In this document: positions 3,299-64,000 of the stretch, in pieces
Numbering within the stretch: position 1 is the stretch's first letter
How the letters are laid out: each line of letters begins with the position of its first letter
Assembly: GCA_964621395.1 (NCBI GenBank)
Contig: CAZULS010000001.1
Location: forward strand, 135,920-199,919
Length of the DNA: 64,000 nt
Direction of reading: 5' to 3'
DNA from: an uncultured Candidatus Saccharibacteria bacterium
GTDB taxonomy: Bacteria; Patescibacteriota; Minisyncoccia; Phycocordibacterales; JACNGX01
Position numbers and translations under genes: made by a program
The notes under the pieces: generated by a model
Databases searched by the model: none
Told to the model about the DNA's origin: nothing
What the model saw: only the letters and a program-made list of their open reading frames with translations

Positions 3299-3451
3299 TA
3301 GGATAGTGCAACAAACGATAAACCCTAGAGCACGCAAGTGTGCTCGGGCGAAGCGATAAACGCGGCGGATGTCGCAAAGCGACATCCTCCGCGATGATAA
3401 ACTTTCTCTTCGTTGTCATTCCCGGCTTGAATGGGAATCCAAAGCCCTAAT

Positions 3452-3550
3452 CCAGCCCCACACTGATGTGTTTCAGGATAAAATAAACTGATCAGTAGAG
3501 ATACTACCGGATACAGAATTATGTCTCTGGACACATAAGTGTGGGGCTGG
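3452..3550. repeat. Family-E MITE-like element (TIR CCAGCCCCACAC ... GTGTGGGGCTGG), with a family-A GTCATTCC hairpin at 3414-3445
   Basis: Inverted termini read directly; related TIR-bounded copies at 16063-16168, 34975-35095, 49845-49965. Confidence 0.55.
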
Positions 3551-3591
3551 ACGGGCATGTCCTAAACCAGGCGTAGCCTGGTCGGACAAGA

Positions 3592-3662
3592 GCGGGTATA
3601 GTTTAGTGGTAGAATATCTGCCTTCCAAGCAGAGGACGGGAGTTCGATTCTCCCTACCCGCA
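3592..3662 (+). tRNA. tRNA-Gly (anticodon UCC)
   Basis: GCGGGTA acceptor stem pairs with TACCCGC; D-loop AGTTTAGTGGTAGAA; anticodon stem TCTGC/GCAGA with loop CTTCCAA giving anticodon TCC; T-arm GGGAGTTCGATTCTCCC; discriminator A; no encoded CCA. Confidence 0.9.
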
Positions 3663-4308
3663 CAGCCAAAGCGAACCGCCATGAAGGGGCGGTTTTCGCT
3701 TTGAGCTGTGCGGGTAGAATGCCACACCTCATACGCATATGGAGTTTTTGGAAGTATGGAATAATGCAAGAAAGTAAAGATGTGTGGGGACAATATCTCT
3801 TGTGAGGTGTGGCATGTGGAGAATCGAACCAAACACAACTTTCACTGATTATTTTGATTGGTTAATTAAATGTTAGAGATTTTTCTTAACGAGAAGTAGC
3901 TATTTTCGGTTATAAGTGAAAGTGGTGTTCGGCGCCCAAGAGTACTTAGCGGATTGCGAATACTTGGAGCAATACGCTTAGTAACTCTGGGACGATTCTC
4001 CCTACCCGCACCACTTCGCCGAGCACCACTTCCGAAAGGAAGTGGTGCTCGGCTTCGCGGCGTCCGTCCTGCATAGCTTTAGCGACGTAGGGCAAGCACC
4101 ACCAACAGCGTGTATATCATATAATCGCGAAGTGGCCCTGCAGAGCCTCGGCGACGTGGGGCATGTAAGACTGTGAGCCGCGCCTGCCTGCCGGCAGGCA
4201 GGTCCAGCAGCACTTTATAAAATACGAGCTCTCAGGCGAAGTATTTTACTTAGTAACTCTGGGACGATTCTCCCAAAATAAAAGCCGGCTTCTGCCGGCT
4301 TCTGCCCT

Positions 4309-4686
4309 CTATTTTCTGGGAGCAGGTATAGGGTACAAGGCTGCTAATTCGGGAGAAAATTGTGCTGACGAGACTGCCACCCAACCCCCCTCTTCAATAA
4401 TGAATCCAAGGATAGGTTTCGTATCGCCTTCTTTTCTGAATATTCCCACAGCCAAGTCACCGTCTCTCACATCTCCGCCTTGCCAGGCTCGTGTGAAGAA
4501 ACCCTCGAATTCTTTTTCGTAACCAAGCTCACATACTTTTTCCCATATAGACACGGCATGCCATCCGTGTATGTGGTAAGCTTCTGAGGGATTATTCAAA
4601 TCTCGGATAAATTTAACCCCTAAATGTGCGATGGCTAACATTTTTACTATCCTCCTAGATTGATTTTGTGTTTTATTATCCATCAT
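4309..4686 (-). CDS. Hypothetical protein (accessory islet next to tRNA-Gly)
   Basis: 125-aa ORF with no recognisable motif; start may be internal (MLAIAHLG). Confidence 0.3.
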   Translation of the reverse strand: MMDNKTQNQSRRIVKMLAIAHLGVKFIRDLNNPSEAYHIHGWHAVSIWEKVCELGYEKEFEGFFTRAWQGGDVRDGDLAVGIFRKEGDTKPILGFIIEEGGWVAVSSAQFSPELAALYPIPAPRK

Positions 4687-4698
4687 TTTTCCCCTTCC

Positions 4699-5070
4699 TT
4701 AATTTTTTACATATTTCCGTTCGTTCAGAAAATGGTTGGCCGCTGCCCCAATAAGCCAAATTGAGGGAAGTAATATTGCTGCAATGGTGGCAGTGAGAAT
4801 AGATACATAGGATTTCTCTGTAGTGGTTACAGTTATAAATATTATTCCAGACGCAACTATGCCCACATAGCTGGCATTCCTGAGTTGTTTTAAAGTTCCC
4901 GTTTTCATTTTGGGCATGAATACGAGCGAAAAGAGCATTGTGATGATATAGAGTATGATGATTTCCATTTTCCCTCCGTTTTTGTTCAAGTACAAGTTAC
5001 ATAAAGAAATATTTCCTGCCCGCATAATTGCACAAGTTTGACATCTGTTCAAAGAAGTGCTGCAAAACAT
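4699..5070 (-). CDS. Hypothetical small membrane protein
   Basis: 123-aa ORF; several hydrophobic helices (IIILYIITMLFSLVF, IVASGIIFITV, ILTATIAAILLPSIWLIGAAA); 13-bp gap to the upstream ORF. Confidence 0.3.
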   Translation of the reverse strand: MFCSTSLNRCQTCAIMRAGNISLCNLYLNKNGGKMEIIILYIITMLFSLVFMPKMKTGTLKQLRNASYVGIVASGIIFITVTTTEKSYVSILTATIAAILLPSIWLIGAAANHFLNERKYVKN

Positions 5071-5124
5071 TCATTTTATAAACAAATAGTTGAAAAATAG
5101 CACAAAGAGATGTATGGTTGAAAT

Positions 5125-5967
5125 ATGCTTTCATTCTATAAGGGAATTGAAAATGATATCATTGCTCATCTCACAGAAGGGCCGCTTCCGGCAAAAACAC
5201 TGGTGAAAACGATTGTCGCTGAGCGAGGAGTGACCGACCAGGGCGTGTATAAGGCGCTGAAATATCTTATCGACGGAGAGGTGGTGACGAAAGAAAAGCG
5301 GTCTGTTGGTTTATCGCATGCATGGGTGGAGCGCCTTGTTGCTTTTGCTGACGATGTGGCTCGAAAATATGAAATGAGTGACATGAACGATTTTCTCCGC
5401 CTCAACGACAAAGAGAAAGTATCATATACGTTTACTGAATATTTTAAATCCGATATCCATTGGGCACATATCTTTTTTCTCCTTGCCAAGCGGACTGATG
5501 CGCCGATTTTTCTCCTTTCTCCACACAATTGGTTTATTATTGCGCGTCCGGATACCGAGTCGGTTTTGTATGATTGGGCTAATCGTTCAAAACGGCATAT
5601 GTACACGCTCACAAAAGGTAATACCGCACTTGATCGTGCTGCACAAGCTACAATTGAAAGTGATTTTGTGCACTTTTATCACGATGAAGAGATGAGCACG
5701 CCGCTCAATCGCTTTGTAACAGTTATCGGTGATTTTATTTTTGAATTCATCATTCCGGAACGCATTGCCGACACAATGGAAGAATATTATGCAACATACA
5801 CCGAGTTTAATGAGGAAAGTATCGGTGCATTCCGCGCGCTCAGCGATACAAAGTGGCCGGCAAAATTTACCGTTGAAAAAAATGCGAAAAAAGCACTTAA
5901 ACTCCGCCGGCGCATAGCCAAAGATTTTTTCATTCCGGCAGACGTAAAGGAGAAGTGGCTGACCTGA
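5125..5967 (+). CDS. Hypothetical protein, possible N-terminal winged-helix domain
   Basis: 280-aa ORF; the N-terminal approx 70 aa have a wHTH-like pattern; no catalytic motif recognised. Confidence 0.3.
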   Translation: MLSFYKGIENDIIAHLTEGPLPAKTLVKTIVAERGVTDQGVYKALKYLIDGEVVTKEKRSVGLSHAWVERLVAFADDVARKYEMSDMNDFLRLNDKEKVSYTFTEYFKSDIHWAHIFFLLAKRTDAPIFLLSPHNWFIIARPDTESVLYDWANRSKRHMYTLTKGNTALDRAAQATIESDFVHFYHDEEMSTPLNRFVTVIGDFIFEFIIPERIADTMEEYYATYTEFNEESIGAFRALSDTKWPAKFTVEKNAKKALKLRRRIAKDFFIPADVKEKWLT

Positions 5968-6034
5968 GTATATATGTCAAGAAGTTATACACAGTGTGCT
6001 TGACTTTTTTACATAGTTCGCATAAAATGTCATT

Positions 6035-6742
6035 ATGACCAAGAACACACATAAAGAATTGATGTCCACTATCAAATCGTTGCGGACCGAGAAAGGATTC
6101 TCGCAGGAGCAGACAGCTTCTGCTATCGGCGTTTCGCGCCCGACCTATACAGCCATTGAAGCAGGTAAGCAAAAACTTGATGTTGAAGAGGCGAAAAAGC
6201 TCGCGGTGTTTTTAGGTATTGATGTTGAAGATATCGTGTATGAAGATGTGTCGAATTTGGAAAAGTATAAACACATGATTCTTGCATATCTTCGCGCAAA
6301 GGTGTCGGACGATGGAAAGGTGACAAAGACGAAACTTGCCAAACTCTTGTATCTGGCTGATTTTGCGTGGTATTACGATCACATGAAAAGTATGAGTGGT
6401 ATGCGATATCGTCGTTTACAGTATGGTCCGGTACCAGACATGTTTTTTCGCGCACTCGCGGAGCTTGAAGACAGTGGGAAGATTGTTGTGGAACGGAAAG
6501 ATATGGAGGAAAGAGAAATGTTTCTTATTAGCGAATCTGAGAGCAACAAGAACGATCCTCTTGAGAAGGTGGGAACTGATGAGGTTTCCCTTATTAAGAG
6601 CATCGCAAAAAAGTGGAAAGATAAAAAAACGCAAGATATTGTGACTTTCACACATAATCAATTGCCATATCGGATTTGTCGTGATAATGAGATTATCCCT
6701 TATGAGCTCATCACACAGGAGGATTCCGACCTGGTGTATTAG
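6035..6742 (+). CDS. Antitoxin candidate: N-terminal XRE-family HTH + C-terminal Panacea (DUF4065/SocA-like) domain
   Basis: HTH: LRTEKGFSQEQTASAIGVSRPTYTAIEAGKQKL. Panacea-like core: TKLAKLLYLADFAWYYDHMKSMSGMRYRRLQYGPVPDMFFRAL (KLLYLAD ... Y.YGPV pattern). Downstream ORF starts 4 nt after its stop. Confidence 0.55.
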   Translation: MTKNTHKELMSTIKSLRTEKGFSQEQTASAIGVSRPTYTAIEAGKQKLDVEEAKKLAVFLGIDVEDIVYEDVSNLEKYKHMILAYLRAKVSDDGKVTKTKLAKLLYLADFAWYYDHMKSMSGMRYRRLQYGPVPDMFFRALAELEDSGKIVVERKDMEEREMFLISESESNKNDPLEKVGTDEVSLIKSIAKKWKDKKTQDIVTFTHNQLPYRICRDNEIIPYELITQEDSDLVY

Positions 6743-6745
6743 GGT

Positions 6746-7150
6746 ATGCCAGGGACATGTTCTGTTACAATTGAATCTTTTGCGGAAAGTCATTATGTGA
6801 AGACGTTTGAAAAGAGGCACAAGTGGCACTGGGATGTAACTCGTCGCGCCATTATCGCCGAGCTTGAACGTATTGAAGCACTTCTTCTCACCGACAAGGC
6901 GGATTGTATTTGTGAGCAGGATGGTGTTGCCATTGTAAAAGTGGATTTCAAGGTGGCGGGAACAAAAGGGTCAGCAAAAAAGTCCGGTAACAGATGTATT
7001 GTTGCGTGGCATAAAGATAATGAAAAAGTCTCTATACTTTTGTTATACGGAAAGACAAATTTGCCAGGTAGAGGGAAAAATGAGACCGCGGTATGGAAAA
7101 AGATGGTGAGAGAGCAGTATCCCGAATATAGATATTTGCTAAAGAGCTAG
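6746..7150 (+). CDS. Toxin candidate partnered with the Panacea-domain antitoxin; weak RelE/ParE-superfamily-like C-terminus
   Basis: 134 aa; operonic with 6035..6742 (4-nt gap); C-terminal KSGNRCIVAWHKDNEKVSILLLYGK resembles the RelE/ParE beta-strand core (g.yR.iy.v ... v.il.i.h); otherwise unassigned. Confidence 0.35.
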   Translation: MPGTCSVTIESFAESHYVKTFEKRHKWHWDVTRRAIIAELERIEALLLTDKADCICEQDGVAIVKVDFKVAGTKGSAKKSGNRCIVAWHKDNEKVSILLLYGKTNLPGRGKNETAVWKKMVREQYPEYRYLLKS

Positions 7151-7282
7151 CACGCTTATTTTGCTTGCACCCGACCCGCAAATATGCTTAAATAGTGGGC
7201 ACAACGAAAGAAAGGGGATTTTGGCGTCTGGCTGGACTCTTTTTATTTTCTTTTTTATTTCTGACTTTTGATTTTCAGTCCT

Positions 7283-7372
7283 ATGGGAACTTCGTTAAAG
7301 AACAAACGCAAAAGTGTGAAGCGTCGTCGTCGCAAGAAAATGCGTCGTCAGAATCGCTTTAAGAACAAATAA
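7283..7372 (+). CDS. 29-aa highly basic peptide, possible bS22-like ribosomal protein (MGTSLKNKRKSVKRRRRKKMRRQNRFKNK)
   Basis: Not in ORF track (<60 aa). ATG 7283, TAA 7370-7372, immediately followed by terminator AAACCGCC-CTCGAG-GGCGGTTT + T-run (7375-7410). Composition and length resemble the ~30-aa actinobacterial/bacteroidete bS22. Confidence 0.35.
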   Translation: MGTSLKNKRKSVKRRRRKKMRRQNRFKNK

Positions 7373-7374
7373 CG

Positions 7375-7410
7375 CAAAACCGCCCTCGAGGCGGTTTTGC
7401 GTTATTTGTT
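7375..7410 (+). terminator. Rho-independent terminator after the basic mini-ORF
   Basis: AAACCGCCCTCGAGGCGGTTT hairpin + TTGCGTTATTTGTT. Confidence 0.6.
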
Positions 7411-7551
7411 CAGGAATATGAAAAACGAAATATGGAATATGGTGTACGGCGTAGCTTCGCTCTGTCGCACGCTCGAAACTCGAAACTTGACTCTCGAAAC
7501 TCAACGAAAAAACTCCGCGGTGCGGAGTTTTTTCGTAAGTGGGTGATGCGT

Positions 7552-7824
7552 TTATTTCACCGCATCCTTGAGGGCTTTCGCCGCACGGAACTTCGGTACG
7601 CGCTGCGCGGGAACCTGAACGGCTTCACCGGTGCGCGGATTGCGTGCCGTGCGTGCCGCACGCATCTTTGCCGAGAAGATGCCGAGACCCGCGATGGACA
7701 CTTCGTCGCCCGCCTTCAGCGTGTCAACGATTGCATCAAGCATTGCGTCTACGGCGCGTTCAGCGTCCGCTTTGGTGCTGCCGGTTTTTTCCGCAACAAC
7801 ATCAACGATAGCTGCTTTATTCAT
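7552..7824 (-). CDS. hup: HU family DNA-binding protein
   Basis: 90 aa from MNKAAIVDVVAEKTGSTKADAERAVDAMLDAIV ... GLGIFSAKMRAARTARNPRTGEAVQVPAQRVPKFRAAKALKDAV; canonical HU/IHF arm motif RNPRTGE. The track ORF 7552..7896 has a 24-aa N-terminal over-extension. Confidence 0.85.
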   Translation of the reverse strand: MNKAAIVDVVAEKTGSTKADAERAVDAMLDAIVDTLKAGDEVSIAGLGIFSAKMRAARTARNPRTGEAVQVPAQRVPKFRAAKALKDAVK

Positions 7825-8380
7825 GGGATGTATTTCAAGAGAATATCTCTTGTACGTTAGTCGGGTAAAATCGACCTCGTCGAGTATATTTTCCAATCAT
7901 CCTTGCGGACGTTATTGAGAAATAGACTCCTTTCAATCCCGGAAACGGGTTCGCTTCCTATAAAACATTATAAAACAATGCTTTTTACGGGGACAATCTT
8001 GACATGTGAATAAGATGTTGCATGAGTTTTGGGGACAGTGTTGAAAATAAAGGATAAATTGCAAATAATTCGTTTTTTGTGTTTACGCAACGTATATTTT
8101 AGGCAGAAATTGTCCACCACACACCACTTTTTATGAGCGAGCGTCTTGCGGTAGTGTATTTCACGAAACGAGCATCTTTTGTATCGTTGGTTTGCGCATT
8201 GTGAAAAGATGGTGTGCGGTACGCGCTAAAACAAAAACGCCCTGACGGGTCTTTGAAAAGGAGGCATACCACACACCACTTTATATTGGACAACGTGAGA
8301 AGGTTTTTCGTGTATATGTAACATAAGTATTTTTATGGTTATTTGAGTGTATTAAAAGATGGTGTGCGGTACGCGCGATA

Positions 8381-8412
8381 AAGAAAAGCCCTTTCGGGCT
8401 TTTCTTTATCGC
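8381..8412. terminator. 19-bp-stem perfect palindrome GCGCGATAAAGAAAAGCCC-TTTC-GGGCTTTTCTTTATCGCGC, bidirectional terminator downstream of rny
   Basis: Read directly; the stop of rny (8406) is embedded in the stem flank. Confidence 0.6.
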
Positions 8413-9968
8413 GCGTACTCTATAACCTTCGTCTCTCGTATCACATGAACCTTAATTTCTCCCGGATATTTGAGCTCTGTCTCTATCTGACGAGCGATTT
8501 TTTGTGCCAAATCTTTTGCCTGCATATCAGTAATTTTCTCCGGCGACACGAAAATGCGGATTTCCCGCCCCGCTTGGAGGGCAAAACATTTCTCCACGCC
8601 TTCAAACGACAAGGTAATCTTCTCCAAATCTTCCAAACGCTTCAAATATTGCTCAATGGAATCGCGCCGTGCGCCCGGACGTCCGCCTGAAATCGCGTCA
8701 GCCGTTTGCACAATAATAGACTCAAGTGTTTCATACGGATATTCTTCATGATGCGACTGCATTGCCTTCACGATTGCCTCATCAGCACCAAATTTCTGCA
8801 AAATACGGCGACCGATTTCCACGTGGGTGCCCTGCACCTCATGATCCACCGCCTTTCCGATATCGTGGAGAAGTGCGCCTGCTTTGGCAATAGGCACGCT
8901 TGCCCCGAGTTCCTCAGCAATCATGCCGGCAATATGCGCCATTTCCACGGAATGCTGAAGCACATTCTGCCCGTAGCTGGTGCGGAAGTGTAAACGCCCC
9001 AAAATGGCAATAATGCGCGGATCAAGATTGAGAATACCGCATTCATATGCCGCCTGCTCACCCTTATCTTTAATGATTTTACTGATTTCGTCTTTTGCCT
9101 TGACGATATAATCTTCAATCTTCGCCGGCTGGATGCGTCCGTCTAGAATGAGATTTTCAAGCGCAACGCGAGCAATCTGACGGCGAACCGGATCAAAGGA
9201 AGAAATGGTAATAGCGCCGGGCGTGTCATCAACGATCACATCCACGCCGGCGGCGCGCTCGAATGCTTTGATGTTGCGTCCTTCTTTTCCGATAATCTTT
9301 CCCTTTATTTCATCCGAGGGAAGGGTAATCGTTGTGGAGGTGATATCGGCATTGGTTGCATTGGCATAGCGCTGCACCGCCGTTGTGAGGATCTCTTGTG
9401 CGCGGCGGTCGAGTTTTTCGGTATTGGCGTTTTCAAGCTTCTGAATACGCACAAGCAAATCTTCTTCATATTGCGCCTCAGCACGCTTATACAATTCCTC
9501 GCGAGCTTCCTCGGAGGAAAGATTGCCAACACGCTCCAATTCTTTTTGCTGCTCTTCTACTGATTTCTCCACTGACTCGCGAATTCCCTTCACTTCCTCG
9601 ATGCGATGTTTCACTTCTTCAATCTGCTTGTCGATATCAAGCTGACGCTTATCCAGGAAGTCTTCTTTTTTCACCAAACGCTGTTCAAGTTCTTTGGCGT
9701 CTGCCTTCTTCTCCTTCGCCTCCTTCTCAGCGTCTCTTAACACGTGCTCCGCTTTTTTCTCCGCTTCGTGTGTGATTTTTGTTGCCGCTTCTTCCGCCGA
9801 AAGACGCATGCGTTTGATCTCAAGCTCCATGCTGCCCTTTTTCCCGAGGGAGATGATGAAACGCAGGAAATACCCGAGGGCGACTCCGACGAGCACGGCG
9901 CCTCCGGCTATCAAAAACATAAAAAGAGTAAAGCTCATACCTGCATGTTCCTCCGAACACGACAACAC
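8406..9968 (-). CDS. rny: Ribonuclease Y
   Basis: 520 aa; N-terminal TM, coiled-coil, KH domain (IIGKEGRNIKAFE) and HD domain (LLHDIGKAVDHE). Confidence 0.9.
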   Translation of the reverse strand: MLSCSEEHAGMSFTLFMFLIAGGAVLVGVALGYFLRFIISLGKKGSMELEIKRMRLSAEEAATKITHEAEKKAEHVLRDAEKEAKEKKADAKELEQRLVKKEDFLDKRQLDIDKQIEEVKHRIEEVKGIRESVEKSVEEQQKELERVGNLSSEEAREELYKRAEAQYEEDLLVRIQKLENANTEKLDRRAQEILTTAVQRYANATNADITSTTITLPSDEIKGKIIGKEGRNIKAFERAAGVDVIVDDTPGAITISSFDPVRRQIARVALENLILDGRIQPAKIEDYIVKAKDEISKIIKDKGEQAAYECGILNLDPRIIAILGRLHFRTSYGQNVLQHSVEMAHIAGMIAEELGASVPIAKAGALLHDIGKAVDHEVQGTHVEIGRRILQKFGADEAIVKAMQSHHEEYPYETLESIIVQTADAISGGRPGARRDSIEQYLKRLEDLEKITLSFEGVEKCFALQAGREIRIFVSPEKITDMQAKDLAQKIARQIETELKYPGEIKVHVIRETKVIEYAR

Positions 9969-10096
9969 AGGGCTTTCATTCAGGCGTACGACAAACTATG
10001 CGCGCATGGGTGTTATGCGACGCGAAAAGAAAAGACGAAAAGCGTTGAAACGAAAATCCAAAATCATACGTGTTCGTAATGGAAAGATAATTTCGA

Positions 10097-10285
10097 GAGC
10101 CTGTTCACGGTTCTCATGTCGTGCGTTAATGCATCATATACCGAGCGAAAATCGTGAAAAACGGTGATAGAGTACTATCGTACTTTGAGACGTTTTGAGC
10201 GATTTGCAGCCGGTATATGGTGCATTAAGCCGACAAGGATATATTGTTCTTCGTTTAATTCCGTTGAGAACTGTGAACAGGCTCT
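10097..10285. mobile_element. Family-C MITE (189 bp) with 19-bp TIRs GAGCCTGTTCACGGTTCTC / GAGAACTGTGAACAGGCTC
   Basis: Inverted termini read directly; near-identical internal sequence to the copy at 17903-18090 (opposite orientation) and the partial copy at 52690-52812. Confidence 0.7.
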
Positions 10286-16034: not shown

Positions 16035-16062
16035 CTAGAAACCATCTCATAGTACATGGTTT

Positions 16063-16168
16063 ATCCAGCCCCACTTTCACTGATTACCTCAACGTGTCCT
16101 TTCTCGTTAGAAATGAACATTAACGAAACATGGTAACAATACACAAATGAGTGAAAGTGGGGCTGGAT
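16063..16168. mobile_element. Family-E MITE (106 bp), TIR ATCCAGCCCCACTTTCACTGA / TGAGTGAAAGTGGGGCTGGAT
   Basis: Perfect 21-bp inverted termini read directly, in the spacer between the two hydrolase genes. Confidence 0.7.
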
Positions 16169-16262
16169 TGCCAAGCATCTACACGAAGTGTAAAGTATTA
16201 TTTTGAGCGGTTTAATATGAGATGGGTTCTAGTATCATTATCAGTATTATTTTTTAACGCGT

Positions 16263-17902: not shown

Positions 17903-18090
17903 GAGCCTGTTCATGGTTCTCAACGGAATTGAAAGAAAAAGAATAAATCCTTGTCGGCTTAATACACTGTTATACCGGCTGCAAATCGCTTAAAATGTCT
18001 TGAAGTACGAGAGTACTCCCGCGCCATTTTTCACGATTTTCGCTCGGTATAACAGTGCATTACGCACGACAAAGAACCATGAACAGGATC
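17903..18090. mobile_element. Family-C MITE (188 bp), TIR GAGCCTGTTCATGGTTCTC / AGAACCATGAACAGGATC; begins 1 nt after the TetR stop codon
   Basis: Near-identical to 10097-10285 in inverse orientation. Confidence 0.7.
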
Positions 18091-21284: not shown

Positions 21285-21369
21285 TGTCATTCCCAACTTG
21301 ATTGGGAATCTTCGTTGTTTTGTTTCTGAGAATTATTTGAGAAGATTCTGAATCAAGTTCAGAATGACA
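21285..21369. mobile_element. Family-A hairpin-ended MITE (GTCATTCCCAACTTGATTGGGAATC ... GATTCTGAATCAAGTTCAGAATGAC), with a solo half copy at 21395-21440
   Basis: Two terminal stem-loops with termini TGTCATTC / GAATGACA; the family recurs at least 12 times in the window. Confidence 0.65.
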
Positions 21370-22080
21370 AGTAACAACCCCTATAAGCCACATATCTGTC
21401 ATTCCCGACTCGATTGGGAATCTTCGTTGTTTTGTTTTCGAAAAAACAGAACCCCCGAACAAAATTGTCAGGGGTTCGAGGCTGCGCCAGCTTTTGAGCT
21501 TGCAGCCTTGCCTTATGGTAACCGAGTTATTCGCGCTGGTCAGCGAATATGGTGTGGTCGGCACCGGCGGCAGCTGAGGCAATAGTGGTATTTTTTTCTC
21601 CAAAAGGTTCAGCGGCATGGCCGAACGGAGGTGAGTGGGTACAAAGCTTTTTCATAAGCTTATCTCCTCATCTTTTTGAGTTAATCCGCAATCCTACAAT
21701 GGAACATGCGGAAAAAATGCTTACAGAAACACACTACCAAAGAACACATTGTCCCCTATATCCTGGTAAGATAAGACAAAGTTGGAACCAATCAATTGAC
21801 CCCTATTATATACCACTCAAAATATTTGTCAAGCGCATTTTGGGATTTTTTGTACAAAAAGCCAATTTCAACCTTATTTTCCAACATATTTCATGAAAAT
21901 AAAAAACACGGCGGAGCGCGAGCCCCGCCGTGTTTTCCTGGTAAACTGCTCGAAAGCTCGCCCTGTTTTCTTAATATGGCATGTCGTGAAATGTGGCTTA
22001 AACCATATTACCTTATCTTGCTAAAAAACAGCGGGGCTTTGAGCCCCGCCGTTTTCTTTTTGTGTGGTCTTTGTTATTTT

Positions 22081-46406: not shown

Positions 46407-46433
46407 CGATAAACGATAAACTCATAAACGATA

Positions 46434-46466
46434 AAAAAGCGCGGGCTAACGCCCGCGCTTTTTTGT
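46434..46466 (+). terminator. Terminator after rpsG (AAAAAAGCGCGGGC-TAAC-GCCCGCGCTTTTTT), preceded by three ACGATAAAC motifs
   Basis: Read directly; it implies rpsG and fusA are transcriptionally uncoupled here. Confidence 0.6.
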
Positions 46467-46487
46467 ATGCCAAAAGCCTTCATTTCG

Positions 46488-46555
46488 TGTCATTCCCAAA
46501 AATATTAAGGTTAAACCTTAATATTGTGATGTCATTCCGAGCTTGACCCGAAATC
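46488..46555. mobile_element. Family-A hairpin repeat pair
   Basis: GTGTCATTCCC ... GTCATTCCGAGCTTGACCCGAAATC. Confidence 0.55.
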
Positions 46556-46647
46556 TAGTTTATAGCTAGGACGGACCTAGCTACGGCCAGCGCTTTTCGC
46601 ACCTTGCATACTACACAAAAAAAGCGGGTCGCTATGGACCCTGCTTA

Positions 46648-47070
46648 TTACGATGGGACAAGTATGCCATTACGTTCAATCTCATCCATTTCCTCCATGA
46701 CTTTTTCAAGCTGAATTTCTTTGTCCTGTCCGAATTCTTTGGTGCTTATACCTTTCCATAGCCATTCCGTTGCGTTTTGGATTTTTTGAAGTCCTTCGAT
46801 TCTTATTTCACGAGATTGTTCAACTCGTTTAAGCTCTATGCGAGTGACCCTTGTAAAGGAGTGGTATGAATTATGCAAAGAATCGTGATTGGCATCTTTG
46901 AAATCAATCATGATATACAGATAGTAGTCAAAACGCCCTTCTGCGAAGACAGGATCGACTTTTTCTGCCCTAATCTCGATTTCATTTTCGGCTGGGTGGA
47001 AGATTTCTTTTTTCGAAACCAAGCACCACTCGTGCTTTTTCAGCAATCTGTAGAGTTCACGAGTATTCAT
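46648..47070 (-). CDS. Hypothetical protein inserted on the opposite strand between rpsG and fusA (weak HicA-like N-terminus)
   Basis: 140-aa ORF; N-terminus MNTRELYRLLKKHEWCLVSKK resembles HicA/YcfA-type toxins but lacks the GSH motif; flanked by family-A hairpins at 46488-46555 and 47296-47323. Confidence 0.35.
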   Translation of the reverse strand: MNTRELYRLLKKHEWCLVSKKEIFHPAENEIEIRAEKVDPVFAEGRFDYYLYIMIDFKDANHDSLHNSYHSFTRVTRIELKRVEQSREIRIEGLQKIQNATEWLWKGISTKEFGQDKEIQLEKVMEEMDEIERNGILVPS

Positions 47071-47367
47071 GAGTTTTTGATTGTTTTGTTTTTGAGAATA
47101 TAACTTTTAGAGCGTTTACTGGTATTACTATACATTCGTCAGAAATTTTAGCAAGCCCCGCATGTACCTTTAGGTACATGCGGGGCAGTGGAATTGTCGC
47201 TTTTTGCTTGCAAAAAGCCCATCACTCCAGTATAGTATGCCCACTAGCCAGCACGGCTTTTTGTTTTTGAGAGTTGTCGTTAGGGTGTACTCCTTAAGAT
47301 TCCCGATCAAGTCGGGAATGACAACATATCTTTTATCGTTATTATTTAATCGTTTATCATTCATTAT

Positions 47368-49518
47368 ATGCAGCGAGATTATCCATTGGAGAAAGTGCGC
47401 AATTTCGGTATTATCGCCCACATCGACGCGGGGAAGACCACCGTTTCAGAGCGTATTCTCTTTTATACCGGCGTCTCACACAAAATCGGTGAGGTGCACG
47501 AAGGTGAGGCGGTCATGGACTGGATGGAACAGGAACGCGAGCGCGGTATCACCATTACGTCCGCGGCGACAACCTGTTTCTGGGTGCCGACACACGACGA
47601 TGCCTCTGATGCTTCCAAGAAATATCGATTCAATATTATCGACACTCCGGGGCACGTCGACTTTACCGTGGAGGTGGAGCGATCCCTTAAGGTGCTCGAC
47701 GGTGGTGTTGTCGTCTTCGACGGCGTTGCCGGCGTAGAGCCTCAGTCTGAGACCGTGTGGCGCCAGGCAGATAAATACAAAGTGCCGCGCATGTGTTTCA
47801 TCAACAAGCTCGATCGTACCGGCGCTTCTTTTGAGCGTTCATACAAGTCGATTTTGGATCGTCTGACCAAAAAGGCGGTTCGTTTCCAGATTCCGATGGG
47901 TGAAGAGGAGTACCACCAAGGCGTGGTAGACCTTCTCAAGATGAAAGCATACTTCTTCGAGGGTGAGATGGGTAATACCGTGCGCGAAGATGAGATTCCG
48001 GCAGAATATAAAGACGACGCCGAAACATATCACAATGAGCTCATCGAAGCGGTGGTACAGCACGATGAAGAAGCAATGAATCGTTTCCTCGAAGGGGAGA
48101 CAATTTCCGTGGAAGAGCTTCAAAAAATCGCGCGTAAGGCGGTGATTGCAAACGAACTCGTACCGGTCTTCACAGGTACGGCACTCAAAAACAAAGGCGT
48201 GCAGCTTCTCCTAAACGCGGTGGTAGATTATCTGCCGTCTCCGCTTGATGTTCCGGCAATTTCCGGAGAAAATCCCAAGACGGGTGGAAAGGAAGAGCGT
48301 CATTCTTCCGACGACGAGCCGTTTGCAGCGCTTGCCTTCAAGCTCGCTGTGGATCCGTTTGTTGGTCAGCTCACATTCTTCCGCGTGTATTCCGGAACAC
48401 TCGAAGCCGGATCATATGTGTACAATGCCCGCACGGGAAATAAAGAGCGCGTGGGCCGTATTTTGCGCATGCACTCCAATGATCGCGAAGAGGTGAAGAA
48501 GGTGTATGCCGGTGAAATCGCGGCGGCTGTTGGTTTGAAAGACGTGCGCACGGGAGACACCTTGTGTGATGAAGGGCATCCGGTGCTTCTGGAAGGAATT
48601 GAATTCCCTGAGCCGGTAGTGTCGCTCAAGATTGAGCCGAAGACCAAAGCCGATCAGGAGAAGATGGGCATTGCGCTTTCTCGTTTGGCGCAGGAAGACC
48701 CGACATTTAAGGTTTCCACCGATCAGGAAACGCTTGAGACAATCGTTTCAGGTATGGGTGAGCTTCACCTCGACATTATCGTGGATCGTATGAAGCGCGA
48801 ATTTAAGGTGGAGGCAAATGTGGGTCAGCCGCAGGTGGCATATCGCGAAACAATCACCGCACCGTCGGAATCTGAAGTGAAATACATCAAGCAGACGGGT
48901 GGTCGCGGTCAGTATGGTCATGTGAAGATTCGCATGAAGCCCATTGAGAAACTCTCCGAAGAAGAGATTGCGGATTTGCCCAAGACAGTGAAGCGTTCGG
49001 AAGGATTCGAATTCGTAAATTCAATCAAGGGAGGGGTTATTCCGCAGGAATATATTCCGGCTTGTGAGAAAGGATTTAAGGAAGCGATGGAGAAGGGTAT
49101 TGTTGCCGGCTTCCCCTTGGCGGATGTGTCGGTAGAGCTGTATGATGGTTCGTACCATGAAGTGGACTCCTCTGAAGTTGCCTTCAAGATCGCGTCCTCA
49201 CAGGCATTTCAGGAAGCTGCGCAGAAAGCAAAGCCGGTGGTCCTTGAGCCGATGATGAAGGTGGAAGTGGTGACTCCCGATCAATTCATGGGAGACATTA
49301 CCGGAAACCTCTCTTCCAAGCGCGGACAAGTGGAAGGCACCGAAGACCGCGGTATGAACAAGGTGGTGCGTGCCGCCGTGCCTCTTTCGGAGATGTTTGG
49401 GTACATGACCCAGCTTCGAAGCATGACCGAAGGTCGCGCAAGCTTCACGATGGAATTTGCGGAATACGCAATCGTACCGCAGAATATCGCGGATGAGATT
49501 GTGGCGAAAAGGAAGTAA
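47368..49518 (+). CDS. fusA: Elongation factor G
   Basis: 716 aa; [22 protein letters not shown]-domain motifs. Confidence 0.95.
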
Positions 49519-49619: not shown

Positions 49620-49968
49620 CATGTACTGCTTGTCATCCTGTTTAATTTTCCCTCTGCCATCTCGCACCACCACTGTCATCCCGTCCAACCCCACATTGGT
49701 GAGCACGGAAATGTATATATTCAACCCAGCAACAATGCCACTGGCGAGTGCCATGTACTTTTCAGAATCATACATGTGGGGCTGGAATGCGGGATCTCCC
49801 CGAATAACCTCTGGGAAAAATATGTCGAAGATTCCCAATCACCAGAGCCCCACTTTCACCAACATAGTCTGTAATAAAACATTTTTCGTTTCTTCTTCTA
49901 TCGTTCACGGCTTCTTAATGTATTCAGTGAAAGTCGAGCTCGGCAGGAGTTGGGAATGACAAAAAATA
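49620..49968. mobile_element. Composite family-A/family-E repeat block downstream of fusA
   Basis: Contains TGTCATCC hairpin halves, GTGGGGCTGG, and CCAGAGCCCCACTTTCACC ... CAGTGAAAGTCGAGCTCGGCAGGAGTTGGGAATGACA (near-duplicate of 34903-35099). Confidence 0.6.
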
Positions 49969-53448: not shown

Positions 53449-53645
53449 GGGTACGAACTACGAACATATACGAACATACGGAGACAGTGTCTCGCGACAT
53501 AATATAATTATATCGTCATTCCGCACTTGATGCGGAATCTAGGAGACTCTGTATCTGGATTCCTGGTCAAGCCAGGAATGACAGCAAAAGAGAGTTTCCT
53601 GCTGAAAGTCAGATTCGTATGTTCGTACAAATTCGTAGTTCGTAA
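53449..53645. mobile_element. Composite family-B variant enclosing family-A hairpins, between rpsJ and the inserted minus-strand ORF
   Basis: GGGTACGAACTACGAACATATACGAACATACGGAG ... GTCATTCCGCACTTGATGCGGAATC ... CCAGGAATGACA ... GATTCGTATGTTCGTACAAATTCGTAGTTCGTAAC. Confidence 0.6.
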
Positions 53646-53710
53646 CAGTTCATAACACAAAAAAACCGCACAGCGGCATATGACGAATCATATACATGTG
53701 CGGTCGGGTT

Positions 53711-54253: not shown

Positions 54254-54420
54254 GAAACGTATAATTCCGAATTACGAATGCACGCGAATATACGAATGAG
54301 TGAAATAGCGGATGTGCCTTCGAAGTATCCTCGGAACATATATAACAATAAGAAGAGAAATATAAAAATGCACGATATATTGAGTATTCGTATATTCGTA
54401 ATAAATTCGTAATTCGTAAC
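54254..54420. mobile_element. Family-B MITE variant directly upstream of rplC (right TIR ends 3 nt before the ATG)
   Basis: ATTACGAATGCACGCGAATATACGAATGAG ... GTATTCGTATATTCGTAATAAATTCGTAATTCGTAAC. Confidence 0.65.
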
Positions 54421-54423
54421 TTT

Positions 54424-55035
54424 ATGAAATTCATCCTCGGCACAAAAGAAGAGATGACACAGATTTTCCAGGAAGATGGACGTGTCGTACCGGTAACAGC
54501 AATCGCTGCCGGTCCTGTTGTGGTGACACAAGTGAAGAATGCTGATACCGATGGATACAGTGCTGTGCAGGTTGGCTTTGGTACACAGAAAGAATCTCGC
54601 TTGGGCAAGTCTGTTCTTGGGCACACCAAAGATCTTGGTGCATTTAAAACACTTCGCGAATTCCGCCTGGAGGATACGGCAGACATGGAAAAAGGGAAGA
54701 CTATCGACGTGTCTATCTTTGAGCCGGGTGAGGAAATCGAAGTGAGCGGAATTTCGAAAGGAAAAGGTTTCCAAGGTGTGGTGAAGCGTCATGGCTTCAA
54801 AGGCGGTCCTCGTTCACACGGTCAGAAGCACTCTGAGCGTAAGCCGGGTTCTATCGGATCAACCGGTCCGCAGCGCGTGCTCAAAGGCTTGCGCATGGCA
54901 GGACGCATGGGTTCGGATCGCGTAACGGTGAAGAATCTTTCAGTGGTTGCCGTCGACGCGGAAAAAGGGCTCCTCTTTGTGAAAGGTGCCGTTCCCGGAC
55001 GTCGCGGCACATTGCTCGAAGTCCGCACCGCCTAA
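54424..55035 (+). CDS. rplC: 50S ribosomal protein uL3
   Basis: Conserved uL3 N-terminus and KGKGFQGVVKRHGF motif. Confidence 0.95.
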   Translation: MKFILGTKEEMTQIFQEDGRVVPVTAIAAGPVVVTQVKNADTDGYSAVQVGFGTQKESRLGKSVLGHTKDLGAFKTLREFRLEDTADMEKGKTIDVSIFEPGEEIEVSGISKGKGFQGVVKRHGFKGGPRSHGQKHSERKPGSIGSTGPQRVLKGLRMAGRMGSDRVTVKNLSVVAVDAEKGLLFVKGAVPGRRGTLLEVRTA

Positions 55036-58856: not shown

Positions 58857-59086
58857 CCTGTTCTGTTTATCTTTATCCCAAAAAGCTGCCTTCCGGGGCA
58901 GCTTTTTATGTGGAATTGGTTTTTGTGTTTCGCGCGGCGTGATTCTTCATTCATAATTCTTAATTCTCAGCCGCGAATGGTTCTCTGCCGTGCTCGCACG
59001 GCAGAGAACCATTCGCGGCTGTTGACTTCTCCCCGGCTATCTGCTAGGATACTGCAACGAGTGTGTGCTCGACTTTTGTTTTATAT

Positions 59087-59425
59087 ATGACACGATCGCT
59101 GAAGAAAGGTCCGTATGTGGACGAAAAATTGCTCAAGAAAATCGCCGGAAAGAAGCCGGCGGATGTTGGCGTGATTACAACATGGGCACGCGCAAGCCAA
59201 ATTTCTCCGGAAATGGTAGGTTTCAAGTTTGGTGTGCACAATGGCCGTAAACACATTGAGGTGTTGATATCCGAAGACATGGTAGGACATCGTTTGGGTG
59301 AATTCTCCCCGACAAAGACCTTCCATCGTCACGGTGGTAAGATGCAGAAAGAGCTTGAGCAGAAGAAGAAAGAAGCGGAAATCGCTGCAGCAAAAGCCGC
59401 TAAGGCCGCTGCCGACAGTAAGTAG
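59087..59425 (+). CDS. rpsS: 30S ribosomal protein uS19 with K/A-rich C-terminal extension; stop codon TAG is the first triplet of a family-D MITE
   Basis: [19 protein letters not shown] ... [17 protein letters not shown] conserved; the track ORF starts 8 codons upstream. Confidence 0.9.
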
Positions 59426-59620
59426 AACCTGTCTCACTGAAAAATATATGATAACCACAACTCTTCATTCATAAGCTGCGCTTGGCAGCTCTCGCACCCA
59501 CATTGCGGCTGTGCCTCGTCTCTCAACCTCACCGTACGACAGTACGCTTCGGTCTCCGAGACGTCGGCTCACTCGCAATGTGGGCACGAGAACAAGCCAT
59601 TTTCGGTGAGAAAGGTTCTA
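59423..59620. mobile_element. Family-D MITE between rpsS and rplV (TAGAACCTGTCTCACTGAAAAA ... CATTTTCGGTGAGAAAGGTTCTA)
   Basis: Internal sequence homologous to 23871-24069; the 5' TAG doubles as the rpsS stop. Confidence 0.7.
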
Positions 59621-61565: not shown

Positions 61566-61811
61566 ATGGCAGATACTACACAAAAAATAATCAAGCGCCT
61601 GGAGGGAACTGTTGTTTCAGATGCAATGGACAAGACAGTGACCGTTCTCGTGGACCGCTTTGTAAAGCACCCGAAATACGGCAAGTTTTACACGCGTTCG
61701 AAGAAGTACAAGGCACATGACCCGGAGAATGCTCATAAGAAAGGGGATCGTGTGACCATCGAATCGTGTCGCCCGATTTCAAAAGACAAAGCATTCCGCG
61801 TCGTTGAGTAA
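61566..61811 (+). CDS. rpsQ: 30S ribosomal protein uS17
   Basis: [44 protein letters not shown] ... [16 protein letters not shown]. Confidence 0.9.
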
Positions 61812-61966
61812 ATTACGAATTACGAATAACGCGAATATACGAATACACAATACAGTTTCTGAGAACAATTATCCTGTCATTCATACAAAAGCGGAGATCC
61901 CGCATCACCCACGCCCCAGTTTTCAAGAAAGAGGAAAACTGAGCGGGGCAAGAGTGCGGGATGACA
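61812..61966. mobile_element. Family-B left half (AATTACGAATTACGAATAACGCGAATATACGAATACACAAT) + family-A hairpin (TGTCATTC ... GTGCGGGATGACAG) inserted between rpsQ and rplN
   Basis: Read directly; followed by AAGCTCAAAGCTATAAGCTAT motif (61997-62025). Confidence 0.6.
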
Positions 61967-62408: not shown

Positions 62409-62714
62409 ATGAAAATCAAGAAAGGAGATACCATTGTAGTGATTGCCGGTGCCGATAAAGGAAAGGAAGGAAAGGTGGCCGAAGCACTCCCCGCGCAGAG
62501 TCGTGTGGTTGTTGATGGTGTGAATATGCGCAAGCGCCACAGCAAGGCGCGAAAGAGTGGCGAAAAGGGTCAGATTGTTGAATATGCTGCGCCGCTTCAT
62601 GTGTCCAATGTGGCGCTCAAGGATCCGAAGACTGGAAAGCCGACACGCACGGGTGTGAAGATGGAAGGGAAGAAGAAAGTGCGTATTGCGCGAAAGAGCG
62701 GTAGCACAGTTTAA
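62409..62714 (+). CDS. rplX: 50S ribosomal protein uL24
   Basis: MKIKKGDTIVVIAGADKGKEGKV KOW motif. Confidence 0.9.
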   Translation: MKIKKGDTIVVIAGADKGKEGKVAEALPAQSRVVVDGVNMRKRHSKARKSGEKGQIVEYAAPLHVSNVALKDPKTGKPTRTGVKMEGKKKVRIARKSGSTV

Positions 62715-62910
62715 TTCAAGAACCTCTCTCAGTAAAAATGGCTTACGTCCGTGCTCTCCGTTCGAGCGAGACGCCGGCGCGGAGTACGAAGCATACTGAG
62801 ATATGGTGAGGACGAGCGACAAGTCGCAGCCGAATGGAGAGTGCGGAAGTTGCCAAGTTATTGAATATCATTTTATTATTACGTTTTTTACTGAGATAGG
62901 TTCTGATACT

Positions 62911-63456
62911 ATGGAAACGATTGCAGACAAATTGAAGAGTACACGTGAAGCGCTCGGCGAGCGTTTTGGATACACAAATATGTTTCAGGCACCGCGCCTT
63001 GAGAAGATTGTTGTCTCAACCGGCGTTGGCTCCACTATCGATAAAGAGAAGCTCAAACTCGTACCTGAGCGTTTGGCACTCATTACCGGCCAGAAGCCGT
63101 CGGCACGCGCAGCAAAGAAGTCTATTGCGTCCTTTAAGGTGCGCGAAGGAAGTGTTGTTGGTCATAGTGTTACTCTTCGTGGCGCACGCATGCGCGGTTT
63201 CCTCGAGAAGCTCATTCACGTGGCGCTTCCGCGTACCCGCGACTTCGGTGGTATTTCGCCGAAAGCAATTGATGATATGGGCAACCTCACCATCGGCATC
63301 AAGGAACACACGATTTTCCCGGAAACATCCGATGAAGAATTGAAAAATGTCTTTGGCATGGCTATCACGCTCGTCTCCACGGCGAAAAACAAAGAAGAAG
63401 CACTCGCATTCTTCACCCACCTCGGTGTTCCGTTTAGAAAAGAGGAGAAAGCCTAA
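62911..63456 (+). CDS. rplE: 50S ribosomal protein uL5; terminal Ala-stop supplied by palindromic element
   Basis: 181 aa from METIADKLKSTREALGERFGYTNMFQAPRLEKIVVSTGVG; the track ORF is extended 36 codons upstream. The final codons GCC TAA begin the element GCCTAAAGCACAACAAGTCGTGCTCGGCCACGG. Confidence 0.9.
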   Translation: METIADKLKSTREALGERFGYTNMFQAPRLEKIVVSTGVGSTIDKEKLKLVPERLALITGQKPSARAAKKSIASFKVREGSVVGHSVTLRGARMRGFLEKLIHVALPRTRDFGGISPKAIDDMGNLTIGIKEHTIFPETSDEELKNVFGMAITLVSTAKNKEEALAFFTHLGVPFRKEEKA

Positions 63457-63483
63457 AGCACAACAAGTCGTGCTCGGCCACGG
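63451..63483 (+). repeat. 33-bp palindromic element overlapping the rplE stop; further copy at 63649-63680
   Basis: GCCTAAAGCAC-AACAAGT-CGTGCTCGGCCACGG; CCCAAAGCACAACAAGTCGCGCTCGGCCGCG. Confidence 0.7.
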
Positions 63484-63505
63484 TAAAGATTAGGAGATTA
63501 AACAT

Positions 63506-63538
63506 TAAAAAAGCGCGGGCATACGCCCGCGCTTTTTA
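63506..63538 (+). terminator. Terminator after rplE (AAAAAAGCGCGGGC-ATAC-GCCCGCGCTTTTT)
   Basis: Read directly; near-identical to the rpsG terminator stem. Confidence 0.6.
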
Positions 63539-63808
63539 CACTTTCACATACCGCGTCGCGCGACCGATTTCATAGGGGTAAAAATCGAATATATAACACT
63601 ATACTGTATATAACAGATTATGGTGGATTATAGCGGATAACGCAAGCAGCCCAAAGCACAACAAGTCGCGCTCGGCCGCGATAGAGATTAGGATAAAAAG
63701 AAATCCCGCCGAAGTTAAGCTTTGGCAATTCCGCCAAAGCTTAACTTCGGCGGGACACAACTTCTTCATGCTGTAAAGAATATGGAATATGGAAAAAACG
63801 CAAACCAC

Positions 63809-63886
63809 TGTCATTCCGCACTTGATGCGGAATCTTCATTGTTTTGTTTCTTTTTGTTAAGATTCTGAGTCGAGCTCAGAATGACA
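63809..63886. mobile_element. Family-A hairpin-ended MITE (TGTCATTCCGCACTTGATGCGGAATC ... GATTCTGAGTCGAGCTCAGAATGACA)
   Basis: Read directly. Confidence 0.65.
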
Positions 63887-64000
63887 GTTTTTTGGATCCA
63901 GGATGACGGAAATTTTTATGCTCGCGCTTTTGTATTGCAACAATGAACAATAAATAAACGACCGCTGGAATGCGGTCGTTTTTGGCGAAAAAAGAAAAGA

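Follow-up and report, generated by a model that had tools for sequence, protein, structure and literature searches.

What has filled the intergenic spacers of this chromosome with short structured repeats, and does one transposase account for all of them? The question is raised by a 64-kb stretch of bacterial DNA (the window, to which all coordinates refer unless a relative is named), in which an earlier note had described at least five repeat families, A to E, and had read them as nonautonomous transposons served by an unseen transposase. Our analysis points to a more mixed origin, to which we give a probability of about 80%: family A would be an Ssn-related motif (SRM), the hairpin target of the small GIY-YIG nuclease SsnA; D, and possibly C, would be foldback miniature inverted-repeat transposable elements (MITEs); E would comprise terminal-repeat elements that landed in A hairpins; and B would be an element built on ACGAAT arrays. 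On this account, the spacers of this chromosome would have gathered several unrelated kinds of small structured repeat. Nothing here amounts to a new kind of system; what is modestly new is a dense SRM population in a genome of the Candidate Phyla Radiation (CPR), natural insertions into SRM loops, and evidence that the published SRM string undercounts.

Repeat load of the window

A self-BLAST census of the window returned 64 repeat intervals, 5.5 kb in total. About 45 copies could be assigned to at least six short structured families, in line with the more than 25 copies claimed earlier; the five families already described all lie at or near the positions given for them, and a sixth, F, was added. 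The family-assigned copies cover 4.4 kb (6.8% of the window) and make up 27% of its noncoding DNA, taken as the DNA outside open reading frames (ORFs) of at least 100 aa. To place repeats at nearly every intergenic junction was too strong, since listed repeats were present in 26 of the 42 intergenic gaps, gaps being counted if they reached 100 bp. Folded as single strands and compared with shuffles, the A pairs, B, C, D, E1, and E2 gave z scores of about −5 to −18. Copies are 53 to 87% identical and none are near-identical, so that the label "active or recently active" is not borne out: there is no evidence of recent movement, and families B to E look like ordinary, old miniature transposon-like elements.

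The EF-G gene (47368-49518) has its best named matches in Ca. Yonathbacteria (85% identity), Patescibacteria, and Paceibacteria. Because of these matches, we assign the chromosome to a CPR/Patescibacteria (Paceibacteria-like) host, which agrees with the earlier picture of a compact genome with dispersed structured noncoding repeats. For so tiny a CPR bacterium, such a repeat density is unusual.

Family A hairpins are oriented and covary

Seventeen hairpins in the window fit the pattern TGTCATYCY-N3-CTTGA-N3-RGRATC with at most four mismatches, where at least 12 had been reported. A structure-based detector, which takes GTC followed by a stem starting with AT, found 14 perfect or near-perfect hairpins with an 8-bp stem and a 5-nt loop, compared to 0.8 in shuffles. 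GTC stands 5′ of the stem in 17 of 17 copies (16 TGTC, 1 CGTC), all 17 end in ATC, and C directly follows the stem in all 14 structure-defined hairpins. The motif is an oriented hairpin, [T]GTC-AT..8-bp stem..CTTGA..AT-C. A single hairpin terminates in ...GGAATC, and the end GGAATGAC(A) that the earlier note had ascribed to it belongs to the inverted partner. In all, there are five inverted pairs (70 to 133 bp) and seven solo hairpins, with no target-site duplication at any of the six bounded (paired) units. Individual copies read ATTCCC-N9-GGGAAT (e.g., 21288-21308), ATTCC-N11-GGAAT, or ATCCC-N11-GGGAT. The sites that hold family A are as follows:

3414-3439 (+): solo A hairpin, TGTCATTCCCGGCTTGAATGGGAATC, 11 nt upstream of E1
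21285-21369: inverted pair of A hairpins, 85 bp; hairpins 21285-21310 (+) and 21344-21369 (−)
21397-21422 (+): solo A hairpin, then spacer type TTCGTTGTTTTGTTT, as in the pair at 21285
26047-26147: half of a B5-type element with A hairpin 26060-26085 (−), directly after B1
34912-35102: composite A pair; left hairpin 34912-34937 (+), right hairpin with arms 34971-34979 and 35091-35102 (−), its loop (CT^TGA) interrupted by an E-type element, 34983-35088
40402-40513: A pair of 112 bp that begins 9 nt past the RNase H stop codon; right hairpin degenerate
43604-43736: A pair, 133 bp, enclosing a perfect palindrome with 24-bp arms, 43632-43681
45279-45448: B5-type element with ACGAA-array terminal repeats and nested A hairpin 45359-45384 (−), in the spacer between the M50 peptidase gene and rpsL; not in relative L206
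46530-47323: 140-aa ORF, 46648-47070 (−), between rpsG and fusA, with a solo A hairpin on each side, 46530-46555 (+) and 47298-47323 (−) ("NTS-gene-NTS" layout, NTS being the published repeat described below)
49631-49961: composite A site; degenerate A half-site from 49631, left hairpin 49674-49796 split by an E1-type element (49684-49786), right hairpin 49830-49961 split by an E3-type element (49842-49947)
53449-53646: B5-type element in which a whole A pair is nested (53514-53583)
63809-63886: A pair, 78 bp

The nesting of elements that had been pointed out at four of these sites was upheld (45279-45448, 53449-53646, 34912-35102, and 49631-49961). The 140-aa ORF, which has no Pfam or NCBIfam match, was considered as mobile cargo and rejected: a 36%-identical syntenic homologue lies in relatives L206 and L207 without hairpins, and the ORF is therefore a resident gene.

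The stems vary between copies yet stay complementary, and the compensatory variants described earlier are real. We quantified this with 81 sequences from the window and independent loci, picked solely by the anchors NGTCAT-N17-ATC. In this set, 89% of stem cells pair, compared to 69% in column shuffles and 23 to 44% when the partner is slid, and 150 cells are changed on both sides, compared to 49 in shuffles. G-U wobble pairs do not outnumber other kinds of mismatch, and this suggests a structure at the level of DNA rather than RNA.

The wobble count bears on one alternative, namely, that the hairpins work chiefly at the RNA level, as terminators, 3′ stabilizers, or processing sites, and have been repeated by selection after many genes. 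Strongly stable folds, B copies in four consecutive pil operon spacers, and many copies within 0 to 12 nt of stop codons would suit it. As the earlier note had it, elements abut or supply stop codons: D2 supplies the rpsS TAG with its first 3 nt, C2 adjoins the TetR TAA, the pilC stop lies 0 to 4 nt before a B copy, and the RNase H stop 9 nt before an A pair. We nevertheless consider an RNA role of this kind very unlikely, because A hairpins point either way with respect to genes, G-U pairs are not favored, and no Rfam family reached threshold; the Rfam scan of the window (gathering cut-off, and also E ≤ 1) returned tRNA-Gly only, the rest being subthreshold chance matches. Nor did sigma-70 and terminator scans of the pil spacers favor a promoter or terminator role for B, the consensus scan placing 0 terminator-like sites inside the B copies of that region, and SsnA does not bind RNA (PMC11893778). 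A secondary RNA effect of the hairpins is possible.

A GIY-YIG nuclease accompanies the hairpin across phyla

The exact family A pattern was found in at least 120 genome stretches (one genome per species), compared to a chance estimate of roughly 17. Among the matches listed are Bacteroidota, Alpha-, Beta-, Gamma-, and Deltaproteobacteria, Chloroflexota, Elusimicrobiota, Melainabacteria, and others, with CPR groups (Saccharibacteria, Parcubacteria, and others) contributing 17 of the 120 loci; the inverted-pair layout is common to many of them. One exact hairpin (L077, 366-391) lies on a contig binned as a Methanosarcinales archaeon, either through a binning error or as a true archaeal occurrence.

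In a Flavobacteriales locus (L080), a hairpin pair encloses a 129-aa ORF for a GIY-YIG domain protein (PF01541, E 9e-16), and among solved structures those nearest to it are UPF0213 proteins of unknown function. ORF clustering beside the hairpins of the 120 genome loci yielded no recurrent neighbor except two to three GIY-YIG genes. Since recurrence by neighborhood was too weak, loci were fetched by protein instead: 80 metagenome loci (L124-L203) were chosen solely by similarity to the ~95-aa-class GIY-YIG protein of L080. In these, 132 hairpins lay within 300 bp of the gene ends (2.9/kb), compared to 27 in the remaining 219 kb (0.12/kb), a 24-fold difference, and 57 of the 80 loci had at least one flanking hairpin. 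Where both hairpins could be strictly assigned (15 loci), the + hairpin was mostly 8 to 64 nt upstream and the − hairpin mostly 1 to 37 nt downstream of a 97- to 112-aa ORF, with no flanking duplication at these hairpin-bounded genes.

This arrangement has been published. Chenal et al. (2025; PMC11893778) defined the NTS as CGTCATTCCCGCGMAVGCGGGAATCYRG, an oriented extension of the Neisseria dRS3 repeat, and generalized it to SRMs; dRS3 itself, ATTCCC-N8-GGGAAT, forms the boundary of neisserial intergenic mosaic elements (NIMEs) (PMC1797815). SsnA, a GIY-YIG protein of family cd10448 with 94 aa and a single domain, binds the hairpin solely as single-stranded DNA and makes its cut a few nucleotides upstream. 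Cutting is affected by the three bases that precede the palindrome, and binding by the C that follows it. In Neisseria meningitidis, SsnA lowers transformation by motif-carrying DNA, acting on the single-stranded DNA taken up; in Neisseria, incoming DNA with the motif is thereby restricted in its recombination. The ssnA gene typically lies between two inverted copies (NTS-ssnA-NTS), a layout that the authors liken to an insertion sequence (IS), and they draw an analogy with repetitive extragenic palindromes (REPs) and REP-associated tyrosine transposases (RAYTs). SRMs were present in 71% of ssnA homologue regions, on both sides in 42%, and ssnA was found in 81% of genomes with >200 SRMs; CPR bacteria are not mentioned (PMC11893778).

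An SRM is a palindrome of 20 to 50 nt that can fold into a hairpin as single-stranded DNA. By its sequence, family A is best filed as this already published SRM/NTS-like repeat, because of the GTC in 17 of 17 copies, the C after the stem in 14 of 14, and the 26-mer hairpins, identical to window copies, that stand on either side of ssnA in one protein-selected locus (L128). Our 57 of 80 loci (71%) independently reproduce the published 71%. Since the hairpin occurs across phyla and beside genes for a GIY-YIG single-strand nuclease, the unseen partner of family A would be a nuclease and not a known transposase, contrary to what had been supposed. The pairs and solo hairpins of the window would then be ORF-less copies of the NTS-ssnA-NTS unit, and the host genome would encode an ssnA homologue outside the window; the motif may have multiplied by a REP/RAYT-like, nuclease-dependent process, as has been proposed. 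GIY-YIG enzymes are not known to rejoin DNA.

Could all five families, A included, be classical MITEs, that is, internal-deletion derivatives of IS elements moved by DDE transposases elsewhere? Family D does behave so, and A is small, multicopy, and intergenic, with inverted ends TGTCAT...ATGACA (TG...CA termini). Yet 6 of 6 A units lack a target-site duplication, each A "end" is itself a hairpin with a covarying stem, solo hairpins are as common as pairs, the hairpin occurs in many phyla, and it is tied to a GIY-YIG nuclease gene and not to a transposase (PMC11893778), which together make this explanation highly improbable. The earlier view of the repeats as nonautonomous transposons holds for D, with its terminal inverted repeats (TIRs), TA flanks, and an empty site in a relative, is plausible for C and possible for B and E, but fails for A, which has an Ssn-related motif and no duplications. 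REPs associated with RAYTs are reportedly marked by GT[AG]G. That family A consists of REP/REPIN elements served by a RAYT (an IS200/IS605-type Y1 HUH transposase) is scarcely credible, for although oriented hairpins, inverted doublets, mosaic arrays, and the lack of flanking duplication are shared, and the authors of PMC11893778 drew the analogy too, the gene between the inverted copies is GIY-YIG and not Y1, the 5′ bases of family A are GTC and not GT[AG]G, and a literature search linking GIY-YIG to extragenic palindromes under that name returned none.

Families D and C

Family D comprises five copies of 68 to 199 bp without an ORF, 56 to 78% identical, with arms of 20 to 27 bp and ends GAACC[AT]GTCTCAC.... 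TA stands on both sides of four of the five, and in full copies the foldback takes in almost the entire element (z of −7 to −18). Three had been listed before, correctly, and two D-like copies had been missed (16036-16231 and 62718-62905):

23871-24069: D1, 199 bp with the TA at either end counted in; terminal repeat GAACCAGTCTCACTGAAAA; folds back almost completely
59423-59620: D2, in the TA of the rpsS stop codon, whose TAG combines the duplicated TA with the element's first base; empty site in L206
20452-20519: D3, 68-bp internal-deletion derivative with perfect 27-bp arms, TA-flanked
16036-16231: D4, D-like, TA-flanked, with E2 (16063-16168) nested inside
62718-62905: D5, diverged D-like, flanks AA / TG

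The rpsS site provides the empty counterpart. It reads AAG-TA|G..D2..|TA-ACACATT... in the window and AAA-TAA, followed by a 21-nt spacer before rplV, in L206; when D2 and one TA are removed from the window, a TAA stop and a 17-nt spacer are left, resembling the 21-nt spacer of the relative. Because of its TIRs (21 to 27 bp), TA flanks, whole-element foldback, and this empty site, we consider family D a nonautonomous transposon; it fits a TA-duplicating foldback MITE with a cut-and-paste signature and a presumed transposase. A DDE transposase acting in trans would mobilize family D, with duplication of TA, and possibly also family C, where the duplicated target may be TAA. Such TA and TAA target duplications are known from the IS630/Tc1-mariner and IS5/PIF groups.

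The three family C sites described earlier resolve into two full copies, C1 and C2, which are 188-bp foldbacks 85% identical to each other with the end sequence GAGCCTGTTCAYGGTTCTC, and one copy without terminal repeats:

10097-10284: C1, 188-bp foldback, terminal repeat GAGCCTGTTCAYGGTTCTCA; flanks CGA / TAG
17903-18090: C2, 188 bp, TAA on both sides, the left TAA being the TetR stop codon
52679-52830: C3, an inner stretch of C that lacks the terminal repeats, between tuf and rpsJ

The tuf-rpsJ spacer measures 279 bp in the window and 39 bp in L206, C3 accounting for much of the difference. A MITE with a 3-bp TNA duplication (IS5/PIF type) is a plausible reading of family C.

Family E, with some copies in the centers of A hairpins

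Family E has six copies of ~105 bp with ends CCAG(A)GCCCCAC (end sequence CCAGCCCCAC); the four sites listed earlier are real, and the count was short. Besides E2 and the copies in composite A sites, these include:

3451-3551: E1, 101 bp, terminal repeat TCCAGCCCCACAC, just upstream of tRNA-Gly (3592-3663)
43451-43575: E-like element, terminal repeat GAGCACCACTTTCAC

At 34971-35102 and 49830-49961, an E element sits exactly between the CT and the TGA of the A-hairpin loop. The two composites are 69% identical overall, and they are thus copies of one E-insertion event. A different E subtype occupies the center of the partner hairpin at 49674-49796, which is a second such event, so that E elements would have landed in A-hairpin centers at least twice. 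Hairpins split in this way may stay functional, because artificial loop extensions do not abolish SsnA cutting (PMC11893778).

Families B and F

Family B was found in nine copies or variants, in agreement with the at least nine reported earlier; the element is ~200 bp long, with ends that are arrays of ACGAAT heptamers. Those not already given with family A include:

25846-26042 (+): B1, ~197 bp, inverted ends made up of ACGAAT arrays, its start 3 nt beyond the pilB stop
27376-27572 (+): B2, which begins right at the pilC TAA and stops 10 nt short of the next start codon
29367-29563 (+): B3, 4 nt after the stop of a 593-aa gene
30221-30412 (+): B4, 4 nt after the stop of a 215-aa gene
54257-54428: B7, diverged, upstream of rplC, 60% identical to B2
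61801-61852 (+): B8, left-end fragment

In the pilB-pilC cluster, four spacers in a row are each filled by a B copy (72 to 87% identical, all in one orientation), and the four consecutive stop codons (pilB, pilC, and two more) lie 0 to 4 nt before these copies. The B5-type subtype holds an A unit at a fixed internal position, and this subtype would have carried the A unit along as it spread.

The sixth family, F, consists of five copies of a hairpin motif, AGCCTAAAGCACAACAAGTCGTGCTCGGCC:

63450-63495 (+): F motif, AGCACRAC-loop-GTCGTGCT then CGGCC; also at 36585, 39029, 60016, and 63648

The repeat, AGCCTAAAGCACAACAAGTCGTGCTCGGCCACGG, forms a 7-bp hairpin, and the copies at 39029 and 63450 start at a stop codon (GCC-TAA). 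It also occurs in relatives (L204 925-968; L206 3517-3571 and 5654-5708; L205). Because it is kept in relatives, F may be a functional 3′ element and not a mobile one.

Turnover among relatives

Relatives of the window differ in what their A sites contain. In L204, whose EF-G is 96% identical, a simple 84-bp A pair lies just after the fusA terminator, where the window has a 331-bp composite, and the palindrome inside the window pair 43604-43736 recurs inside an A pair elsewhere in L204. The more distant L205 has pairs in which GTC is mutated to TGTTAT, TATCAT, or AATAACA, and L206 (EF-G 85%) has essentially no A hairpins in 22 kb. The content of A sites is therefore mosaic and lineage-specific, as in NIMEs.

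In L205 (925-1000 and 8860-8960), the GTC needed for cleavage is lost and the stems are kept; the pairs may have decayed once the nuclease was gone, or may have escaped it. In this lineage, the spacer between rpsG and fusA is an island of variable content (window 46407-47367; L204 1-1096; L205 8747-10000; L206 3499-10000): it holds the 140-aa ORF in the window, a HicB-like/PemK toxin-antitoxin pair in L204, a Tad4-family gene in L205, and, in L206, several ORFs with two extra partial S7 copies in 2.1-kb direct repeats.

Weighing the reading

Several observations weigh against the composite reading set out at the start. An Ssn profile search found no ssnA gene or recognizable remnant in the 64-kb window. 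The published SRM string, HGTCWYN(0-2)YYVSBRHN(0-5)WNVSBRGN(0-2)RNCYNB, fits 2 of the 17 window hairpins exactly (0.15 in shuffles). In Neisseria, changing the stem sequence with the structure kept abolished SsnA activity (PMC11893778), so that many stem variants in one genome need explaining. Flanking duplications are absent from family E, none are visible at family B, and one of the two full C copies has one (C2, TAA/TAA; C1, CGA/TAG); of the target-site duplications that the earlier note had suggested looking for, the TA at four of five D copies and this single TAA were found, and A, B, and E have none. ACGAA-type arrays also occur in comparable spacers of relatives, and the B "terminal repeats" may thus partly be a lineage-wide spacer feature. 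Finally, B to E had no match, and no parent element was found, in ~200 fetched loci; the end patterns of B, C, and D had 0 matches in viral contigs, and a 14-base E-end pattern had 106 single matches there, at chance level. We infer ssnA and transposases elsewhere in this genome, as we would any present-day activity.

The best subthreshold match to the Ssn profile (43761-43850, −; E 0.11) lies beside an A pair; it is not a remnant, its translation being full of stops.

How much weight the string deserves can be judged from other loci. With one mismatch allowed, it fits 7 of the 17 window hairpins; among structure-defined GTCAT hairpins, it fits 6 of 161 in the ssnA-selected loci (L124-L203) and 53 of 272 in the genome loci (L002-L121). 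Stems outside it include GCTGAA/TTCAGC and TGCGGG/CCCGCA, and loops CTTGT and TTTAT. Since the string misses most hairpins in loci selected for ssnA, it is a narrow search aid and not a definition of the SRM; Ssn-motif diversity is therefore wider than it captures, and SRM censuses based on it probably undercount.

The Ssn/SRM system, described in 2025, would thereby extend to a CPR/Patescibacteria genome, with 17 hairpins in 64 kb; if this held over ~1 Mb, the genome would rank among the motif-rich ones. A bolder joint reading takes E as a mobile element that specifically targets the single-stranded center of Ssn-motif hairpins (a "parasite of a parasite"), the Ssn/SRM system as expanded in CPR bacteria, which rely on type IV pili and ComEC for DNA uptake and in which it would police which incoming DNA recombines, and Ssn-motif diversity as reaching far beyond the published string; we regard it as unlikely to be right as a whole. 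The window codes for PilB, PilC and, by synteny, ComEC, i.e., DNA-uptake machinery.

Such repeats fragment short-read assemblies of this kind of genome, and one of them provides a stop codon. Two short-read Logan contigs of the same organism (L122 and L123, compared with window 1-10125) both stop at repeats, one inside C1 (10097) and the other ~100 bp past E1, just after tRNA-Gly, which fits the repeats being multicopy genome-wide.

Neighboring genes and further observations

Comparison of window ORFs with Pfam upheld the gene calls TetR, PilB, PilC, RNase H, and S19, and no transposase domain was found among the 30 ORFs scanned; the ORFs beyond these 30 are mostly syntenic with annotated housekeeping genes of relatives.

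Two adjacent paralogues (31849-32997 and 33019-34053) share a 336-bp segment (32061-32396 and 33132-33467; 335/336 identical) that codes for a hydrophobic N-terminal module, their C-terminal parts being different; this looks like recent gene conversion between neighbors. Eight perfect palindromes, all different, with arms of 19 to 26 bp and loops of 2 to 6 nt, lie at 178-227, 7363-7411, 8369-8418, 23259-23300, 34055-34101, 43632-43681, 58968-59021, and 63704-63755; several resemble bidirectional terminators, with complementarity running past the A/T tracts. A related palindrome type, TAGGTTAAACCTA, occurs in L205 and at 46495. Tandem repeats of ACGATAA lie within 40 nt after stop codons (12244, 46403, 49557, and 57170; heptamer/octamer arrays), and repeats of TAAYYTCC / TAATCTCC stand just before start codons (11607, 55070, and 60133), where on the mRNA they resemble the anti-Shine-Dalgarno and not the Shine-Dalgarno sequence. 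Heptamer/octamer arrays of a similar kind are found in relatives L204 to L206.

Comparison with known systems

Family D compares most closely with foldback MITEs of the IS630/Tc1-mariner type (Stowaway-like), with which it shares a length of ~200 bp, TIRs no shorter than 21 bp, a TA at either flank, foldback of the entire element, a 68-bp deletion derivative, and insertion in the TA of a stop codon; it differs in that no parent element with D ends was found and that its copies are just 56 to 78% identical.

For family A, the REP/REPIN/BIME-RAYT systems (BIME, bacterial interspersed mosaic element) offer a parallel in their hairpin doublets without flanking duplications, in the small nuclease gene between inverted copies, and in a multiplication presumed to need a trans-acting enzyme, but the enzyme is HUH-Y1 there and GIY-YIG here, and the conserved flank differs. 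Another parallel is found in the dRS3 repeats and NIMEs of Neisseria (Parkhill 2000; Bentley 2007, PMC1797815), in which ATTCC(C)...(G)GGAAT hairpins also bound variable "RS" spacers that form sequence subfamilies and the content of occupied sites also differs between relatives. NIMEs, however, form long arrays where the window has pairs, and had been thought specific to Neisseria, and the dRS3 center is N8 where the window has N9 to N11, so that the window hairpins are not dRS3 in the strict sense. The SRM/NTS-SsnA system differs from family A in its stems, which are ATTCC/ATCCY/ATTCT-N3 with a fixed CTTGA loop in the window and not ATTCCCGCG-MAV-CGCGGGAAT, and the window differs in its CPR host, in having no ssnA within its bounds, and in some hairpins that hold 105-bp elements in the loop. 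What the two have in common is the oriented hairpin with (H)GTC directly 5′ and C directly 3′ of the palindrome, the intergenic sites, the inverted pairs, the gene-flanking layout, and the wide phylogenetic spread.

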